Sequence record: NC_129898.1
Strand: one strand, 5' to 3'
Length of the DNA stretch: 64,000 nucleotides
From: a phage
The position numbers and the translations under genes were made by a program. The notes beneath the pieces were generated by a model, which was not told the origin of the DNA, did no database searches, and saw nothing but the letters and a program-made list of their open reading frames with translations. Of this stretch, positions 15,952-45,904 are shown piece by piece (positions within the stretch are counted from its first letter, which is position 1; every line of letters starts with the position of its first letter).

Positions 15952-16434
15952 TCAGTCCTCGCATTTAACAAATTTTTCTACAGATCCGCCAAGCACAGCT
16001 TGTTGCTTGATGGCACTTCCTTCATCATAGTGGATAGATTTATGCTCCGTTCCACCAAACTTCCCTGTGTGGAAGGTGTGCACCCAAATCTCTTTGGGAA
16101 GGGATTTATTCTCTTCTCCCACCAATTCCCACATACCCCACAAGTGATCTGTGATATCTCTGATGAAATATCCCTCACCGAGGTTTGTATTCACACTATA
16201 GGCCGATTCGTGATCTCCGTGAGTATAACGGAAGGCAGTGTACTCTTTCCCCGGTGTGAAGTGGGTATCCATCAGTATAGCTGTTAGAGAATTAGGGTCT
16301 CGAAAGCCCAAGAACTTTAGTTTAACAATTTCTACGTTTACACTTGCAAGATTATCCATGACAATCTCCTCTGTTGGGTTGGTGAGATAATCATATATAA
16401 ATCTGGTGTTAGTGTCAAGCTTAATTTTAAGCAA
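15952..16434 (-). CDS. hypothetical protein
   Basis: 160-aa ORF; several His/Asp residues but no motif assigned confidently. Confidence 0.5.
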   Translation of the reverse strand: MLKIKLDTNTRFIYDYLTNPTEEIVMDNLASVNVEIVKLKFLGFRDPNSLTAILMDTHFTPGKEYTAFRYTHGDHESAYSVNTNLGEGYFIRDITDHLWGMWELVGEENKSLPKEIWVHTFHTGKFGGTEHKSIHYDEGSAIKQQAVLGGSVEKFVKCED

Positions 16435-37731: not shown

Positions 37732-40155
37732 ATGAGTATGTGGTCTTTCGATCTGGAGGCCTCTGGCTTGCTGGAAGATCCAGATCTTTATTATCACTGC
37801 GGTTTGTTTAAAGAGCTGAATAAGAACCGTTTTATGCTGTTCCTTCCTCTAAATGACCGCACACACTACTCGGAAGAGGATGTAGAGAAGGCTAAGAACT
37901 TTATTCTGGCAAAGAGAACTCTTTATAAAGATTTTGAGGTTCGCATAGCAGATTTTTCAGAGTTGGAAGGTTGGCTTACAGGCAACTCAGACTGGTCACC
38001 TACGGCTTTGAACTGTCATAACTGCTACAGCTATGACTTTATGCTGATGGAAAGATTATCCGGTGTTCATTTTGATATGTTCCGTGATCCTAAATGTATG
38101 GGGACTATTAACGACCACCAGGTTAATCTGTTTGATACGTTGGCGATGAGTCGAATCTTGTGGCCTGACCGCCCTTTGCCAAAAGGTTGTCCGGACGCAG
38201 TATTCAATCCAGTTACCAAGAAAATGCAGCCTGTTGGGCCTCATGGCCTTATGGCATGGGGCTATGCCCTTGGTAACCAGAAAGTTCAAATCGATGACTG
38301 GCGTGAGCTTCCGCTGTGGAAGTATGTGGATCGTGTGTTCGAGGACGTTATCATCCAGGAGTTGCTCTGGAAAGAGTTGGTAGCGGAATCAAAAGGTGTA
38401 TTCTACGGCAAATCTGACATGCAGAACTTTATGTATGACCCTGCCAAAGAGAAGCCTAAAGGATTCAAGAAGATTACCTGGAAGAATGCATTACGCCGAG
38501 GCATGCTGCAGCATTTCCTGATGGAGCTGCAGGCTCGACAGGGTGTGTATTTCGACATAGATGGGGCTATTGCTTTACGTGACCGCTGCGATGCGTGGAT
38601 GAAAGAGATCGCTGATCGTGTTGAACCACAACTTCCTTTAAAAGAGTTATCAATGTCTCAGCGGCCTAAGTTCCCTGAAAAGCCGTTTAACCAGGATGGG
38701 ACAATCTCCAATAATGGTTGGAAATGGTTAAAAGACAAGCTTGGCTATCCTGTGGATATGAGCGCTTTAGAGTTCAAAGCTCCTCCTAAGCGAGCATTTA
38801 CCTCCACAGGGGATGTCAGTAAAATGGGGATAAAATGGTGTGAAGAGATGGGCTGTAAAGACCCAGATAAGATGGCTGATTTCTTGAGAGGGTATATCAA
38901 AGGAACTTCTACACCACACCCTTTACCTAAAGAGCTAATGGATCAGGCAATAAGTGACCTACAGCAGAAGCGAATGCCTGACTGCAAGATACCTATGAAA
39001 ATCAGCAATCAGGACGACATCAAGCGATACCTGATCAGTGCTGGTTGGCTCCCAACAATGTGGAGAACTAAGGATGTAACTAAAGACAGCAAGAAGAAAG
39101 CTCTGCCTGATGCTGATGTTGATGCACGAGTATATGCATATATGGACGAGCTTTTAGAGTCAGAGTATTGTGACCTAATTATCAACTTCTGGAACAAAAC
39201 TGATGCTAAGTTTCAGACAACCGTGCACAAGTTCCGAAGCTTCCCTAACTCAGAAAGGATTAAAAAGGAAGTGTTTGGGAAGATACGTAGAAAAGCCAGA
39301 GCGCTTATTACTTCTCCGCAACTGAAAGATACGTTTGGACACCTATGTCCGAATCTTGAAAAGTTGAACGGAGAGATGGCTAAAGATATCGTCTTGTGGT
39401 TATCCTTGCGAAACCGTAGATCGGTCCTTGATCCAATCAAGGAGGATAAGGTTGATACTGGTCTTCTTAATCATCCACGTTTGAAGATTGACCATAAGCT
39501 TCCTGCTAAAAGTTCTGGATTAACAAACACTTCCAGACAGAAACACAGCATTTGTGCAAACATGCCTAAACCATCTCCTAAAGTGGTTATGGGTAAAGAG
39601 ATGCGTAGTCTGTGGGGTGTTCCTCCAGGATACTTTGAGATCGGTATTGACGGGTCCAACTTAGAGCAGCTTATCGGGGCTTGGGGTGCCTTTGAGTTCG
39701 ACAACGGCCTGTACTATGATGTTGTAAGTAACGGGGACGCGCACCAAAACAATGCTGAGGCATATACAAAGGTAGCAGGTAGGGAGGTGTCTCGTAACGA
39801 TGGTAAACCTATCACGTATGGGGTTATGTATGGGGCACAAAAAGATAAAGTTGCAGATATGCTGGATATCTCTCCAGAGCTGGGGCAGAGAGTAATCGAT
39901 GCTCTCTGGGATGCCAACCCAGGCCTTAAGGGGCGTAAAGAGGATCTGGAGAAATTCTGGGAAGCAACAGGTAAGAAATTTATCTACTCTTTTGACGGTC
40001 ATGCCATTTGGACCCGCTCTAAACACTCTTTGCTTAATGCATATCAGCAAAATGGCGGTGCATCGTTGTGCGACTTGGTCGGAATCCTCATGCACCACCA
40101 AATGGTGAAGCGTGGATGGTATGATGAGGGTGTTCGTCGTATTATTTATTACCAT
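37732..40155 (+). CDS. family A DNA polymerase, exon 1 (3'-5' exonuclease and most of polymerase domain)
   Basis: Exo I motif FDLEASGL; motif A-like IGIDGSNLEQL; motif B RNDGKPITYGVMYG; frame as annotated stops 1 codon after the proposed splice site, before motif C. Confidence 0.8.
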
Positions 40156-40483
40156 AAATAACATTGTGGCTTCGTGCAGTGATGCACGTCGAAAACCTCT
40201 TTAATTGACGGGAAGGCTAAGTTGACTTTTACACCTAAACATGGTAAAAGCTCAATATGCTAATCCGCAGCGAAGCATCCGAGAGGATGAACGTTCAGAG
40301 ACTATCGAAAGCATAGCTCCAACACAGTTTGGGGTGAAGAAGCGAGTAGAGTAGGCCAGCAAGTGCGGTCGAAATGAGAGGTGCCTTGGTAACAAGGCAG
40401 TGAGATAGTCCGATCCATACGGGAAACTGTATGGCTATGCACGTAATGGTGCGGGGTAGCTTAACGACCTACCTGAACTATTG
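40156..40483 (+). ncRNA. group I self-splicing intron in the DNA polymerase gene, no internal ORF
   Basis: Conserved core elements P (aattgacgggaagg 40203), Q (aatccgcagc 40262), R (gttcagagactatc 40303), S (gagatagtccg 40402); 5' exon ends in U, intron ends in G; guide-like gtgg at 40167 pairs with exon end ccau. Confidence 0.7.
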
Positions 40484-40837
40484 GATGAGTACCAACTTCA
40501 AGTCCCTGACACACCTAAGTATAAAACTGTATACACCTTCGACACAATTGAAGAGCTGGAAACATTTAAGTCCCAGCAGGAGGCTAAACTTCATGTGTTC
40601 GACGGTCATAAGTACAAAAAGGCACGCAAGGATGAAGAAGGAAACGAAGTAGTTGACAGTGATGGAAATACGGTATACGATCCTATCTTGAACGATGACG
40701 GAAAGCTTGAACTTATCTGGAGCCCTGTGGGCGAAATGGTGGTACATTGCTTCTGGCAAGCTTCTAAAATGATGGGCGTTCCGTTCCAGATCACAGGTGA
40801 ATACTTGTGTGGACGTAACTGGGGCGATTGTCACTAA
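40484..40837 (+). CDS. family A DNA polymerase, exon 2 (motif C and C-terminus)
   Basis: Joining to exon 1 gives IIYYHDEYQLQV (motif C HDE); C-terminus GRNWGDCH matches the NWxxxH end of Pol I-type enzymes; frame open from 40460. Confidence 0.7.
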   Translation, partial: DEYQLQVPDTPKYKTVYTFDTIEELETFKSQQEAKLHVFDGHKYKKARKDEEGNEVVDSDGNTVYDPILNDDGKLELIWSPVGEMVVHCFWQASKMMGVPFQITGEYLCGRNWGDCH

Positions 40838-40886
40838 TGTAAACTATCAACACACGGAAGTGTTGTTAGACAGAGAGGAGACTTTT

Positions 40887-41171
40887 ATGGTAGTAGAACC
40901 GACAAAAACATTCACCTCCATGACTATTCCTGTTATTATGCAGGTAGAGTGCGTTCAGGTGTCCCAAGTGTGGCCAGGTACTAAAATTCCAACAGGGCCT
41001 GATTTCTTCCAGGTTGGAAAGGTGTACAATGTATGGAAGGCACCGGATTGTTACCCTTTCATTAAAGATGACCGTGGAATGTTATGGTATCTAGGAAATG
41101 ATTTGACACTGCATCTTGGAAATGCTATTATTGCAGTGTTCCGGCTCAACAAGAAGGAGACAGATCAATGA
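40887..41171 (+). CDS. small protein, paralog family member 1
   Basis: ATG 40887 after RBS GAGGAG; shares pattern FxxGxxY...KDDxGxxW with the next two ORFs. Confidence 0.5.
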   Translation: MVVEPTKTFTSMTIPVIMQVECVQVSQVWPGTKIPTGPDFFQVGKVYNVWKAPDCYPFIKDDRGMLWYLGNDLTLHLGNAIIAVFRLNKKETDQ

Positions 41172-41395
41172 CAACTTTGGTTAAAGCTACGTTTGTAGAA
41201 GAAAAGATGACAGGCTTGTCATTCTTTAAAGAAGGAAAGACCTACAAGGTTTATTACGATAAGGATCGCGGAAACAATATGATCGAAGACGAGGAAGGTA
41301 TTTCCTGGTATATCTCTCACCTGGCAAATGGTGAGTATCATATCTATGGAACCACCCTACTTGCCAAGTTTGTAGCTGTTGAAGAGGATCTATGA
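41168..41395 (+). CDS. small protein, paralog family member 2
   Basis: 75 aa; FKEGKTYKVY...IEDEEGISWYI. Confidence 0.5.
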   Translation: MTTLVKATFVEEKMTGLSFFKEGKTYKVYYDKDRGNNMIEDEEGISWYISHLANGEYHIYGTTLLAKFVAVEEDL

Positions 41396-41586
41396 AAGTA
41401 AAGTATCTGGCTGAAGGTATGAGTAGGTATTTTACCCTTGGAGAAGAGTATTGGCCCTTTACGGAAAATGGAGATGTATACGTGAAGGATGACCAAGGTG
41501 TGCCGTGGTTTCTGCACCATAATGGGTTGGGGTATTCCATCTACTGCGGTGCAGTGAACAACACAACCCTTGCAGAGTTTGTCTAG
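41392..41586 (+). CDS. small protein, paralog family member 3
   Basis: 64 aa; FTLGEEYWPF...VKDDQGVPWFL. Confidence 0.5.
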   Translation: MKVKYLAEGMSRYFTLGEEYWPFTENGDVYVKDDQGVPWFLHHNGLGYSIYCGAVNNTTLAEFV

Positions 41587-41596
41587 AGGAGGCAGA

Positions 41597-41968
41597 ATGT
41601 TAGTAAAAGGTACCCACACAGTCAAGCAACGTATTGAAGTTGAGATCGATGATTGTGAGCTGAAGCATATTTTACGGTCATGCTCCAACGTTTTGCTCCT
41701 TAGTATTCTCCAGGAGCGAGCGGAGAGCGAGTTCCTAAATGCACTAGCAGGCCGTCCTGGGGACTTCTGTGTGCGTAAGCGTGAAGATCATAAGTCATGG
41801 TTGTGGGAAATCGATGCCGACTGGGATTACCACAAAAATGAGGGCATAGATGAGCCTATTCGTGAATTGACAGATAAAGAGATTCAGATGTACAATGAAG
41901 TTTGTCATTGGGCAAAACGCCAACAAATTTACCTCGACCCTGTGTGGATGATTGAAAATAGCCATTGA
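41597..41968 (+). CDS. hypothetical protein
   Basis: ATG 41597 after RBS GAGGAGG (track begins at 41570). Confidence 0.5.
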   Translation: MLVKGTHTVKQRIEVEIDDCELKHILRSCSNVLLLSILQERAESEFLNALAGRPGDFCVRKREDHKSWLWEIDADWDYHKNEGIDEPIRELTDKEIQMYNEVCHWAKRQQIYLDPVWMIENSH

Positions 41969-42044
41969 CAAGAAGTAAGATTGGATATAAGATGCTTCAC
42001 ACAAACAGAGAGTTGATTTTTAAATAATTGAGGAGACTGCTAAG

Positions 42045-42299
42045 ATGCAAATCACTTTGAAGCCAGAATGCGTTGCAAATGACCGAGCTTTTAAAGATTG
42101 CACAATCGGTGCAATTTATGAAGCAGAGTTTTGTGAGAACCCTCTGGTAAAAGCTCTTCTGGAAGAAGGGACCTATTTATCACAAGAAGAACTTGATGAG
42201 TTGGAAAACTCAGCCCAGTGCCTTACCTTTAAAGATGATGAAGGAGATTCTGTCTGGTGCACCGTTAACGAAGTAGTTTTTGTAAAACCTGAGCATTAA
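42045..42299 (+). CDS. small protein, paralog family member 4
   Basis: 84 aa; DRAFKDCT...KDDEGDSVWCT shared with the ORF at 42363. Confidence 0.5.
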   Translation: MQITLKPECVANDRAFKDCTIGAIYEAEFCENPLVKALLEEGTYLSQEELDELENSAQCLTFKDDEGDSVWCTVNEVVFVKPEH

Positions 42300-42362
42300 T
42301 ACTTGACAACAGCGATAGGGCCTAATATAATGGTCCTATCAAAACGAAAGGAGACCACAACA

Positions 42363-42635
42363 ATGACCAAACAGTATCAACGAATTAAAGCCAAGGTTAA
42401 GCCAGACTACTTGGAGAAGGACTCTGCTTTTCGAGACTGCACCGCAGACAAAGTTTACACAGGTGCCGTTCTGTTAAACGACGAATTTGAAGTGGATGTG
42501 CTGGGTAAAGAGGCTACTATCAAGGACGACCAGGGAGATTATGTTTGTTGCACCACCAGAGAGCTGGAGGTATTAGAATACTTCGGTGAAATCTTCACCT
42601 CTCTTGATGATTACTTAGATGACGAGGAAGAGTGA
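42363..42635 (+). CDS. small protein, paralog family member 5
   Basis: ATG 42363 after RBS AAGGAGA; DSAFRDCT...KDDQGDYVCCT; acidic C-terminus. Confidence 0.5.
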   Translation: MTKQYQRIKAKVKPDYLEKDSAFRDCTADKVYTGAVLLNDEFEVDVLGKEATIKDDQGDYVCCTTRELEVLEYFGEIFTSLDDYLDDEEE

Positions 42636-43036
42636 TGAAAAACATTTGGGATATTAATATCTTTGAAGCCTCTGAGCTTGACGGTGCCGATGGTGTTATT
42701 ATAGTTTCTGATGGAAAGGTAACATTGACCTCTGGACTGACCTACTATGACACTACCTACGTATTGGGCGATCTTGCCTTGTTGAAATCAACAGGCGACT
42801 CTCTGGAAGAACGTCTGCAAGGATTTGCCTTTAAAGAAGGCACAAACACCACACTGATGTGCACTACACGCACTGTTCAGTTGGGCAACGGGGTATATAT
42901 GGTCATTGCAGTGTGCCCCAAATTCAGCAACATTAATAAAGATGATGCTGACGCTGTCAACGACGTGGTTGTCCTCTTCGTGGGTGACGCTATGGCAGAT
43001 CTGATGAATGCAGGAGAAGCAGCAAATGAAGACTGA
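42632..43036 (+). CDS. hypothetical protein
   Basis: 134-aa ORF with ATGA overlap. Confidence 0.5.
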   Translation: MMKNIWDINIFEASELDGADGVIIVSDGKVTLTSGLTYYDTTYVLGDLALLKSTGDSLEERLQGFAFKEGTNTTLMCTTRTVQLGNGVYMVIAVCPKFSNINKDDADAVNDVVVLFVGDAMADLMNAGEAANED

Positions 43037-43328
43037 AAACATTACACCAGAAGGATTCCTGAAAGTATACCGTGAACTATTGTATACCACAGAGGATAGT
43101 GTTCTAGAGTACCCAGAATATCTTTTGCTGTATAAGTATCTGCAGGAAGCTGGTGAAAATCTTCCAATTAGCGCAGAAGGTGGTCCAAACTGGGTCTACA
43201 GTGCATGGAGAAAGGTTGACATTCTCCCAGATCCCGGTAAAGATATGGTAGTTTGGCAGCTTATCAACAACATCGGGATTCCAATCTTTGATGAAGCTGT
43301 TAAAATCTATTTTGAACTTGACGATTAA
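43026..43328 (+). CDS. hypothetical protein
   Basis: ATG 43026 after RBS AGGAGA (track begins at 43008). Confidence 0.5.
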   Translation: MKTENITPEGFLKVYRELLYTTEDSVLEYPEYLLLYKYLQEAGENLPISAEGGPNWVYSAWRKVDILPDPGKDMVVWQLINNIGIPIFDEAVKIYFELDD

Positions 43329-43344
43329 TATCAGGAGACTTAAG

Positions 43345-43590
43345 ATGGCTGAAGTAGTTGCTCGTGCAGGACAGAAAGTGCGTTGTGTTGAAGTGGGTTT
43401 TGGTGGCAAAGGGTGTCAAAACTTGACTCAAGGTAAGGAATACACTGTTATTTCTGGCGGTGGTGACGAAAGTATTGTGTTCGATGATCATATTCTGGAT
43501 GCTGAAAACTTTGAAATAATTGACGATGATGGTGATCCGATCACCTGCCTGCTGAACGGGAGTTGGGGAACTTTCGAAGTAATTGGCTAA
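43345..43590 (+). CDS. small protein, possible distant member of the paralog family
   Basis: ATG 43345 after RBS AGGAGA; GKEYTVISGGGDESIVFDD pattern. Confidence 0.45.
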   Translation: MAEVVARAGQKVRCVEVGFGGKGCQNLTQGKEYTVISGGGDESIVFDDHILDAENFEIIDDDGDPITCLLNGSWGTFEVIG

Positions 43591-43627
43591 CAAATACCTG
43601 TTGTAATTTACAGAAGGAGATGCTAAA

Positions 43628-44038
43628 ATGGTGTCTCCTTTATGTTGTTCAAATAAAATCGGAGATTCCACAATGGAACAAATGAACGATCAAGCGTCGG
43701 TTGCGATGAACGAGCAAGAACAACCTCAAGACTTTTTCTTAGGGTTAAGCAAAGATCAAGTGTCTCTTCTGTTGGTACTTTCTTCTTTCATGGGGAGACT
43801 TCAGGAGCTTACACAACAACCGGAGGCTGAACAGTTATTTCAGGCCCTGCGTGAAGAAGAAAAATATCGTCGTTTGGATTATGCCTTAGGTTGGGTAGCT
43901 CAACAACGAGATATGCTAATGGCCCTTTCTGGGACAACAAGTTTTGCAATGGGACTGTTGGCTCAAGTCCAGGACAAATTAATTCAGGCAGGGTTTGCAA
44001 ACACAGCGACCACTAACGAAGAACAAGGAGACAAATAA
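43628..44038 (+). CDS. hypothetical protein
   Basis: 136-aa ORF after RBS AGGAGA. Confidence 0.5.
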   Translation: MVSPLCCSNKIGDSTMEQMNDQASVAMNEQEQPQDFFLGLSKDQVSLLLVLSSFMGRLQELTQQPEAEQLFQALREEEKYRRLDYALGWVAQQRDMLMALSGTTSFAMGLLAQVQDKLIQAGFANTATTNEEQGDK

Positions 44039-45309
44039 TGAGCGTTATTCAACAATTCACCAACCCGATGAATCCGCGTGAAACTGTTTTACTGGCTCAC
44101 GGTATGATTAAACGTGTCAGCATCAAGCCTATCAAAGGTGCTGATCCTACAACAGGTATTAAAACCACTGTGTGGCAAGGTAAGAAAATCGAGTCCAGTC
44201 ACACCATCTCTTTACTGATTTCTGAACTGGATTCTTCTGATAACCTACTTCAAGGTGGTGAAGAAGTTTGGATCAGCATGGGTGATAAATTGCTCAAACC
44301 CGGTCATCAAGATTCCGTCTCTGTTAAAATTGATGACAAGTGGGAAACAGTAACGCCAGGATGGATCGTAAATATCCCTTTAAAGGCAAATGAGCATAAC
44401 GGTAAGACCTACTACAAAGGCTCATTGGCTAAAATGGTTAAGCTGGGGGCAGGAGATGCTCCAGCAGCCCCACAGCAACAAAAACAGCAACAAGGCACAC
44501 AATCACAAGGCCAGAAGCAGAAACCTCAGCAGAATGCCAATCAGGACGTTTTACGCATCTATGGTGATGTGACTCAGATTGTTGGTAACGTGGTTACTGT
44601 CAATGACCACAAGATTGGCGAAGGTGCTATGGTTGTCTCCGATGAGCAGCTTAAAGACCTGGTGGTTGGCGGTCGTGTTGCAGCTATTGTTGACAAAGAC
44701 ACCGGGAATATTATCAGCGGCTTCAAGGCCTACCCGCCTAAAGCAGAGAACGGTACACAAGGTTCTGGTGGTAAGCGTAAATCCTCTTACGACCCCATCG
44801 GTGTAGAGACAGGGCACAGTATCAATGCGTTGCAGATCATTCTGGATCGCGGGTTTAAGATTGACAGTCCTTTAGATGTGGCTAAAACACTGCACGTGGT
44901 CACCATCGAGCTTAAGAAAGAGTACGCTCAAGCCACCAACCGAACTGAAGATGAAGTAGGTGCCAGTGTTGGTAATGCGGTATTGAACGCTTGTCGCCGT
45001 ATTGACAAGAAGACGAAAGTTGATGATTTTGCAGTAGCAATTACTGCAGAGGCAAAAGATGTCTTGACTAATCTTGCTGAACCGTTGTATGATTGGATCA
45101 AGAACGGTGCTGGAGCCACTGACCATCAAGAGCCTCAAGCTGCCAAACAGGAAGCCTCCCCACAGCAAAACACTGTAGACGCCCCTCCTGTAGATGATGC
45201 GGAAGATGACCCAATGGATCAGAATCCAGCACAGTATGACTTCTGTGATGACATACCTTTCGCTCCGGTGGGTTTGCAATATGGCAAAAGTAGAATCCAC
45301 GCATTGTAA
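44038..45309 (+). CDS. putative DNA-binding protein with Gln-rich linker and SSB-type acidic tip motif (DDIPF)
   Basis: 423 aa; low-complexity [25 protein letters not shown] linker; DFCDDIPF at 45247-45261 resembles the SSB C-terminal tip but is followed by 15 more codons. Confidence 0.35.
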
Positions 45310-45904
45310 GAGGTGCATCAAGTGCGGAGAGGTGAAAAACCTCTCCGAGTTCTACAAACACCCAAAGATGTCTGACGGTCATCTTAATAAGTGCAAAGAG
45401 TGTTGTAAGAAGGCCAGTAGGGAGGCTGACCAGTTTTCCCACGACTCTTCAGAAAAAGGTGTAATACGCGTGTTGTACAAGGCTCAAAAGTGCAACAGCA
45501 AGCAAAGAGGTCACCCTCCTCCGACTTACACCAAAAAAGAGTTTAAGGAGTGGCTATACCTGAACGGTTACAAAGAGTTGTATGACCAGTGGGTAGCCAG
45601 CGGATACGACAAAAGGAAAAAGCCCTCTTGTGACAGGATAGATGATTTCAAAGGGTACTCTTTTGATAATATCCGTTTAACGACCTGGGGAGAAAATAAA
45701 GACAAGCAGACGGAGGATATTCTGTTGCATAGAAGCACCAGCGGTAGACGGTGTAAAAATGTAAGGAGGTTGGACATGAATGGCAACGTTCTTAAAGAAT
45801 GGGTATCCCACAATTCTTGTAGAAGAGAAACCGGAATATGTGTTGATTACTACATTCATGAAAAAATTCCAGCTCCCGATGGATACCTCTATGAATACTT
45901 TTAG
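45281..45904 (+). CDS. HNH-family homing endonuclease-like protein
   Basis: ATG 45281 (track begins at 45194); N-terminal CxxC...CxxC cluster; motif [25 protein letters not shown]; overlaps the 3' end of the upstream gene. Confidence 0.55.

Follow-up and report, generated by a model that had tools for sequence, protein, structure and literature searches.

A block of small genes at positions 40887–43590 of a 64,000-nucleotide stretch of phage DNA (sequence record NC_129898.1; hereafter the window, meaning the whole stretch) was analyzed. A previous sequence-only reading had described there at least five, possibly six, adjacent paralogous open reading frames (ORFs) downstream of a DNA polymerase gene. 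Megablast of positions 40200–43700 retrieved 121 phage records, nearly all of rV5-like Vequintavirus phages, with FV3 as the nearest (96.6% identity), so that by sequence the window belongs to an rV5-like Vequintavirus, a coliphage, closest to FV3. The block is filled by nine plus-strand genes, named A to I (Table 1), each with a GGAG-type ribosome-binding site, and it sits in a plus-strand unit that runs from exon 2 of a family A DNA polymerase gene through A–I to a gene annotated in relatives as encoding the single-stranded DNA-binding protein (SSB). ORFs of the sizes given in the sequence-only reading were found at their coordinates as genes A, B, C, E, F and I, and the motifs quoted for them, FxxGxxY...KDDxGxxW and D.AF.DCT...KDD.GD.V.CT, are present in the proteins. 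The six do form one block; they are not strictly adjacent, the non-members D, G and H being interspersed.

Table 1. Features of the array and its flanks (window coordinates)
Feature	Coordinates	Strand	Length	Family	Remarks
DNA polymerase exon 2 (motif C onward)	40484..40837	+		phrog_8888	Profile positions 185–295 of 295
Group I intron, no ORF	40156..40483	+	328 nt	Rfam RF00028	75.6 bits, E = 1.7e-18
Gene A	40887..41171	+	94 aa	phrog_12922	FxxGKxY...DDxGxxW β-barrel module family; 20-aa N-terminal extension; ribosome-binding site GAGGAG
Gene B	41168..41395	+	75 aa	phrog_12623	Family member; modelled, predicted six-stranded β-barrel
Gene C	41392..41586	+	64 aa	phrog_12802	Family member, minimal single module
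Gene D	41597..41968	+	123 aa	phrog_6273	Interposed non-member
σ70-like promoter upstream of E	41965..41993	+			TTGACA-17-TAAGAT, 10/12 match
Gene E	42045..42299	+	84 aa	phrog_12544	E/F pair, AFxDCT...KDDxGDxVxCT; very acidic, isoelectric point 4.1
σ70 promoter upstream of F	42303..42331	+			TTGACA-17-TATAAT, perfect consensus, 12/12 match
Gene F	42363..42635	+	90 aa	phrog_11936	E/F pair; modelled SH3-like barrel with acidic C-terminal helix and tail
Gene G	42635..43036	+	133 aa	phrog_8284	Interposed non-member
Gene H	43026..43328	+	100 aa	phrog_1451, Pfam DUF7238	Interposed non-member
Gene I	43345..43590	+	81 aa	phrog_4927	A/B/C superfamily member carrying E/F-type DDxGDxxxC; acidic, isoelectric point 4.1

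Two sets of old paralogues

Similarity among the nine proteins was assessed by Smith–Waterman comparison of all 36 pairs against 1000 shuffles. The pairs E–F (z = 11.8, P ~2e-7), A–B (z = 10.9, P ~5e-7), B–C (z = 9.9, P ~2e-6) and A–C (z = 5.1, P ~8e-4) hold after correction for 36 pairs, and PHROG searches gave cross-matches of B to the family of A and of E and F reciprocally at about 1e-5. By sequence, A, B and C are clearly paralogous to one another, as are E and F, and the claim that their likeness exceeds composition was borne out for both sets. All remaining pairs failed multiple testing, including E–I (P = 0.006) and F–I (P = 0.027), and every comparison of A, B or C with E or F gave P > 0.03. 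The tandem paralogues are real and also old: amino acid identity between them is just 25–40% and the block contains no meaningful DNA-level repeats, which argues against any recent duplication or gene conversion.

When the nine proteins were scanned against Pfam, NCBIfam and PHROG, only their own PHROGs, of unknown function, were returned, plus DUF7238 for H (30.0 bits versus a cut-off of 27), the sole protein of the block with an above-threshold Pfam family. Among the interposed genes, D showed no similarity to other block genes and H none to the module family described below, in both pairwise and profile comparisons, and D, G and H did not match the superfamily represented by the enlarged profile (G versus superfamily, hhalign P = 0.65). 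Gene G was considered as a third member of the E/F type on account of a CTTR string in common with F and of a natural fusion; it was rejected, since hhalign gave P = 0.054 with sister-clade orthologues added and CTTR is not conserved there. The fusion, in another Vequintavirus contig (P0063), joins F and G in frame at the common CTTR. Genes E, F, G, H and I encode very acidic proteins (isoelectric points 4.05–4.26).

A phage-specific module shared by A, B, C and I

Word-indexed searches of 5.8 billion proteins with A/B/C, E/F and I yielded genus-level orthologues only, and when B and F served as tblastn queries against 50,697 phage records, no records but those of Vequintavirus matched. Exhaustive HMMER searches with the A/B/C profile recovered two divergent single-module proteins, P0087, a distant orthologue of C, and P0091, together with P0088, P0090, P0095, P0096 and P0100, which consist of two to five tandem copies of the module each. 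When the tandem proteins were cut into modules, a coherent 27-sequence alignment was obtained (hereafter the enlarged profile), with the consensus h-x-h-x-C ... F-T-v-G-K-e-Y-x-V ... G ... V-x-D-D-x-G. The signature of the module, which spans about 60 residues, is hydrophobic-x-hydrophobic-x-(C/V)...(F/Y)-F-T-x-G-K-x-Y-x-V...h-V-x-D-D-x-G-x-x-(W/h), where DDxG falls at a β-hairpin turn.

Gene I was recovered by hmmsearch with the enlarged profile built without it, at E = 2.2e-4 among 3338 ORFs. In hhalign comparisons it matched the enlarged profile with P = 9e-8, and with P = 1.6e-8 and 95% probability when sister-clade sequences were included, and a column-shuffle test gave z = 16. Its sequence joins the superfamily's N-terminal motif of FTxGKxY type to the exact DDxGDxxxC of E and F. 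The possible sixth ORF of the sequence-only reading, for which pairwise tests gave no significance (P = 0.006–0.03), thus entered at the profile level, and as a member of the A/B/C superfamily, not of the E/F pair. A hidden Markov model (HMM) of the enlarged family including gene I (sf3), in whose alignment A, B, C and I are themselves contained, scored A, B and C at 5e-16 to 6e-21 overall (A 5e-16, C 4e-18). Combined, these sequence comparisons make A, B, C and I confident members of one superfamily.

In PHROG searches, 11 of 24 modules matched phrog_3523 and 5 matched phrog_4927, the family of gene I, four of these being modules other than I. The families phrog_3523 (multi-module, 315 positions), 4927, 3249, 10169, 15694, 12623, 12802 and 12922 are the catalogued holders of the module; it is widespread in phage genomes, always under 'unknown function' and split over unlinked families, and no description of these PHROGs as one module, nor of a link to the Gp54 fold discussed below, was found in the literature. 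All Pfam models stayed below threshold, DUF7244 being the nearest. The module is phage-specific and appears repeatedly: many coliphage accessory proteins contain it, and larger phage proteins carry two to five tandem copies. One further protein of the window, of 135 amino acids (15952–16359, minus strand; phrog_15992), matched the profile weakly through residues 30–83 (HFTPGKEYTAF...; E = 0.005 among 3338 ORFs) and, judged by this sequence match, may be a fifth in-window member.

Through the DDxGxxW(F) motif, the exhaustive HMMER and PDB searches also picked up Reg_prop proteins (PF07494). Membership of that family was ruled out: no Pfam Reg_prop match was found in A–I, which are single modules and modelled as a barrel, not a propeller. 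The database proteins P0089, P0092–94 and P0097–99 were set aside as Reg_prop propellers or as low-complexity or other repeats that sum weak stretches, P0089 and P0092 on their table entries alone.

Predicted fold

Structure prediction, which the sequence-only reading had proposed as a check, was carried out for B and F only. The AlphaFold2 model of B, computed without templates from a 12-sequence alignment (predicted local distance difference test score, pLDDT, 91.3; predicted template modelling score 0.79), is a barrel of six strands in which the β1–β2 connection contains a short helix, and F was modelled as an SH3-like barrel (pLDDT 84.4). Foldseek comparison of B with the predicted viral structures of BFVD retrieved dozens of uncharacterised proteins of 60–80 amino acids with template modelling (TM) scores of 0.7–0.82, mainly from T1-like and rV5-like coliphages and including four in phage NBD2. 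A 78-amino-acid protein of Escherichia phage isim annotated as 'putative minor capsid protein' (A0A6B9X1Z6) also has a B-like predicted fold (TM 0.69). It was checked as a possible orthologue of I and rejected; the orthologue is isim_43, which has 81 amino acids and is annotated as hypothetical.

The fold predicted for B is that of Gp54 of Escherichia phage Bas11, for which a crystal structure is available (PDB 9AXB), and by this model Gp54 is the only characterised protein of the same fold. Gp54 (complex 9ERV; phrog_7421) is a direct trigger of the fused toxin–antitoxin defence CapRel(SJ46) (Zhang et al., Nature 2024, PMC11578894). It is non-essential and binds CapRel(SJ46) directly, the authors suggesting that it might inhibit another defence system; it engages this host partner through β-strand augmentation, and its close homologues of SECphi27, Bas5, Bas8 and Bas10 fail to activate CapRel (PMC11578894). 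At the sequence level, 9AXB was not recovered by hmmsearch of PDB sequences, and Gp54 matches phrog_7421 only.

Conservation and lineage dynamics

Genes B and F were each found by tblastn in about 115 Vequintavirus records, with the F query matching at both E and F in each of 115 genomes, and the array was syntenic in the Vequintavirus genomes inspected. Ratios of nonsynonymous to synonymous substitution (dN/dS) computed against four Vequintavirus genomes were 0.00–0.01 for A (dS about 0.75), 0.13–0.15 for B, 0–0.11 for C, 0.13–0.21 for E, 0.03–0.11 for F and 0.11–0.27 for I, compared with 0.01–0.02 for polymerase exon 1. Purifying selection acts on every gene, and A is constrained as strongly as the polymerase. 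The description of the paralogs as diversified, if taken to mean fast or diversifying evolution, is contradicted by these ratios (0.00–0.27, all purifying) and by the retention of the array across the genus. Natural variants, in the proteins P0031 and P0065, include an A with an 11-amino-acid internal duplication just before the KDD motif and, in JLBYU08, an E with a replaced N-terminus.

In a sister clade (IMG/VR contigs L022–L024; 37–54% amino acid identity) the layout is kept, with two A/B/C-type genes, not three. L022 (UViG_3300045988_159287) has at 2468–2908, between E and F, an extra superfamily member seen in this sister-clade phage only; it belongs to phrog_14592, annotated 'virion structural protein'. 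No members were detected in the 9 kb flanking the polymerase gene on each side in PVP-SE1, KPP-1, CR3, Av-05, Hena1 and ICP1; the orthologous polymerases of the other Vequintavirinae genera and ICP1 share 46–59% identity. The sole gene of the block also present in PVP-SE1 is D (gene 21, annotated 'similar to rv5_gp216'), which is 41% identical in the sister clade, where H is 46–49% identical.

Transcriptional setting and the split polymerase gene

Two conserved promoters lie within the block (Table 1). The one upstream of E was kept throughout the Vequintavirus loci examined, and at the same place the sister clade has TTGACA-18-TATAAT or TATACT. The one upstream of F still matches at 12 of 12 positions in isim, JLBYU08, rV5_ev146 and L021, and in sister-clade L023 and L024, where the flanks have diverged. 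A 7-bp GC-rich dyad, TAGGGCC...GGTCCTA (42303–42345), encloses the -10 element of this promoter within its 9-nt loop, and the dyad is retained in L023 and L024 with another arm sequence, CGGGGTT...AACCCCG, which suggests an operator or, in read-through transcripts, a hairpin. Genes A, B and C lack separate promoters, and their expression probably depends on the transcript of the polymerase gene. In the rV5 genome paper (PMC3606486), host-type promoters are predicted throughout and the region lies within one long transcription unit read by host RNA polymerase; the paralogues are not mentioned there. The early setting assigned to the array by the sequence-only reading is plausible in the light of these conserved promoter sequences and of the transcription unit predicted in that paper.

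The position of the array immediately downstream of the polymerase gene holds for exon 2, the array starting 50 nt past its stop codon; the rest of the gene lies farther off, beyond a group I intron. The Rfam match to the intron spans 40146–40433, the upstream polymerase ORF ends at 40161, and a 118-amino-acid ORF (40481–40837) encodes the polymerase C-terminus (phrog_8888). Intron-less homologues (KPP-1, CR3, Hena1 and ICP1) read RRIIYYH|DEYQLQVP over the junction, which fixes the end of exon 1 at 40155, the intron at 40156–40483 and exon 2 at 40484–40837. The polymerase is thus split within motif C (YYH|DE), and in many relatives the same intron holds an HNH homing endonuclease. Exon 2 is annotated as a separate hypothetical protein in several GenBank records, and the rV5 genome paper (PMC3606486) does not mention the intron. 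Farther downstream, the SSB-like gene is overlapped at its 3' end by a 236-amino-acid ORF (45194–45904, plus strand); in the corresponding place JEP1 has a gene annotated 'endonuclease VII' and JLBYU08 and rV5_ev146 have none, and the ORF is probably a mobile nuclease insertion.

Discussion

The sequence-only reading had placed the ORFs in two related subfamilies. That the short proteins of the block, with their 25–40% identity, share residues by chance or composition and are otherwise unrelated is an explanation with practically no standing, refuted by the shuffle z values of 10–12 for A–B, B–C and E–F, by the PHROG cross-matches, by the recovery of E with F in every genome, by dN/dS far below 1 and by the confident structure models of B and F. 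The relation between the two sets is less clear-cut: each is paralogous, and HMM–HMM comparison of the six proteins brought I to A/B/C and left the link to E/F borderline. An initial hhalign comparison, made before the profile was enlarged, gave P = 0.031 over 12 columns only. Against the enlarged superfamily the value was P = 6.8e-4, at 27% probability, over 35 columns in register across both motifs, and none of 200 column shuffles reached the observed score (24.1 versus a shuffle maximum of 19.5; z = 8.1). The sf3 HMM scored F at E = 1.4. Because strand order and hairpin motif are the same and the predicted fold is SH3-like, we regard E and F as probably very divergent members of the superfamily. 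The principal structural alternative, in which A/B/C/I and E/F are unrelated β-rich families, the DDxG hairpin motif is convergent and the array is a mixture of small early genes, draws on these marginal profile scores, on the non-significance of all A/B/C versus E/F pairs and on the fact that a DDxGxxW-type motif also produced spurious matches to Reg_prop β-propellers. It is nonetheless somewhat doubtful, since it must treat as coincidence the register of both motifs and the column-shuffle result, the union in gene I of the N-terminal motif of one family with the exact DDxGDxxxC of the other, and the identical strand order of the B and F models; the sixth strand that F lacks is missing in many superfamily modules too.

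As to function, we give roughly an even chance to the view that the array consists of old, stably inherited paralogues of one phage-specific β-barrel module of about 60 residues, specialised as binding proteins whose partners are likely host proteins. On this view the genes would be transcribed by host RNA polymerase along with the replication genes, and the products would be soluble proteins acting singly as protein-binding modules, each adapted to a partner of its own. Host proteins would be the likeliest partners, serving host takeover or counter-defence, because the target of the one characterised look-alike is a host immunity protein, because the genes are absent from sister genera and so dispensable at the level of the subfamily, and because copy number shifts between lineages. 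Binding could be Gp54-like, through β-strand augmentation, and such abundant small barrels might be what CapRel-type sensors detect. By this analogy, the anti-defence role that the sequence-only reading had in mind is plausible. Several points weigh against such a view. The link to Gp54 depends on a single predicted model, and Gp54/phrog_7421, as a 5-sequence alignment, gave hhalign P = 0.14–0.81 against the A/B/C, enlarged, E/F and I profiles; the fold in turn gives no function, because that of Gp54 itself is unknown. The link of E/F stays under the usual confidence thresholds. Counter-defence genes are often patchy and fast-evolving; here conservation is strong, and every Vequintavirus genome has the genes. 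Lastly, the array lies inside the replication module, and a replication role fits its place, and that of P0090, equally well.

That role is the main functional rival, in which the proteins would be accessory factors of the replication module, SH3- or OB-like adaptors binding DNA or the phage replisome (polymerase, SSB tail, helicase/primase). The location of the array between polymerase and SSB genes fits it, as do the placement of the five-module protein P0090, in a 53-kb phage contig, with a DnaB-type helicase on one side and a Toprim primase on the other, the nucleotide-metabolism genes that surround P0100, the polymerase-like dN/dS of A (about 0.01) and the retention of the genes throughout the genus. 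We judge it unlikely all the same: genera with 46–59% identical polymerases, and ICP1, have none of these genes within 9 kb on either side, and therefore this replisome does not generally require them; the acidity of most of the proteins speaks against DNA binding; and early accessory genes in phages commonly adjoin replication genes for transcriptional reasons alone. A virion-associated role, as decoration proteins or as proteins ejected with the DNA, is very improbable. It is suggested by the annotations of the extra member of L022 and of the same-fold protein of isim, both of which are unverified names; against it, the genes lie in an early/replication unit behind σ70 promoters and not in the late module, and the passages of the rV5 genome paper on predominant virion proteins do not name them (PMC3606486).

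What was already known of these proteins is a set of PHROGs of 'unknown function'; what is new is the recognition of A, B, C, I, probably E and F, and the tandem-repeat proteins as one module with the predicted Gp54 fold. Gp54 was presented as an isolated small protein of rare fold and no known function (PMC11578894). A wider proposal, which is speculative and which we hold to be rather improbable, is that the FxxGKxY...DDxG barrel constitutes one large, undescribed superfamily of phage adaptors, multi-copy across coliphage families, whose members are host effectors and also the pattern read by CapRel-type sensors via β-strand capture, the Vequintavirus array being a battery of effectors or of sensor decoys. 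If the fold prediction holds, the Gp54 fold would be that of a broad, uncatalogued module family with no Pfam entry, its members distributed among more than ten PHROGs, present in several copies in rV5-like and T1-like coliphages and found also as tandem repeats in larger phage proteins, which would provide a rationale for a bacterial sensor evolving to recognise this shape. In practice, A, B, C, I, E and F and their BASEL relatives are cheap candidates for CapRel-like triggers, defence inhibitors and host-takeover factors, and for annotation six 'hypothetical proteins' would become one recognisable domain family in more than 100 genomes of therapeutic-candidate phages.

SH3-like small β-barrels are typically protein- or nucleic-acid-binding adaptor domains; from the known ones (SH3, KOW, Tudor, eL14, FeoA and the Ski2 insertion domain) A, B and C differ by a sixth strand, and no proline-rich-peptide or RNA-binding signature was identified in the array proteins. 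Nor did the proteins belong, by sequence or fold, to known anti-defence proteins such as the DNA mimics Ocr and ArdA. Small tandem early or accessory paralogues are ordinary in lytic phages, near replication and early genes. The present array resembles these in gene size, tandem arrangement, location and lineage-specific copy number, and differs from them in that its copies are ancient and each under purifying selection, not recent duplicates or hypervariable. Gp54 and the array proteins are all small (64–66 versus 64–94 amino acids) coliphage accessory proteins, and like Gp54 the array proteins would be soluble and stand-alone. They share 14% identity with no detectable sequence homology and fall in different PHROGs; in a non-significant local alignment the near-invariant FxxG of the family falls on F21-x-x-G24 of Gp54, and G24D is the CapRel escape mutation. 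The Gp54 phage belongs to the Drexlerviridae and has one such gene, and the array phage belongs to the Vequintavirinae and has four to six copies. Bas11 (MZ501085), in addition to Gp54, which does not match the enlarged HMM, encodes proteins that do, namely gp48 (E = 2e-4), gp79 (1.6e-3), gp61 and gp71 (E to 0.03), so that the phage of the CapRel trigger itself has at least two to four members of the superfamily that are recognisable by sequence.

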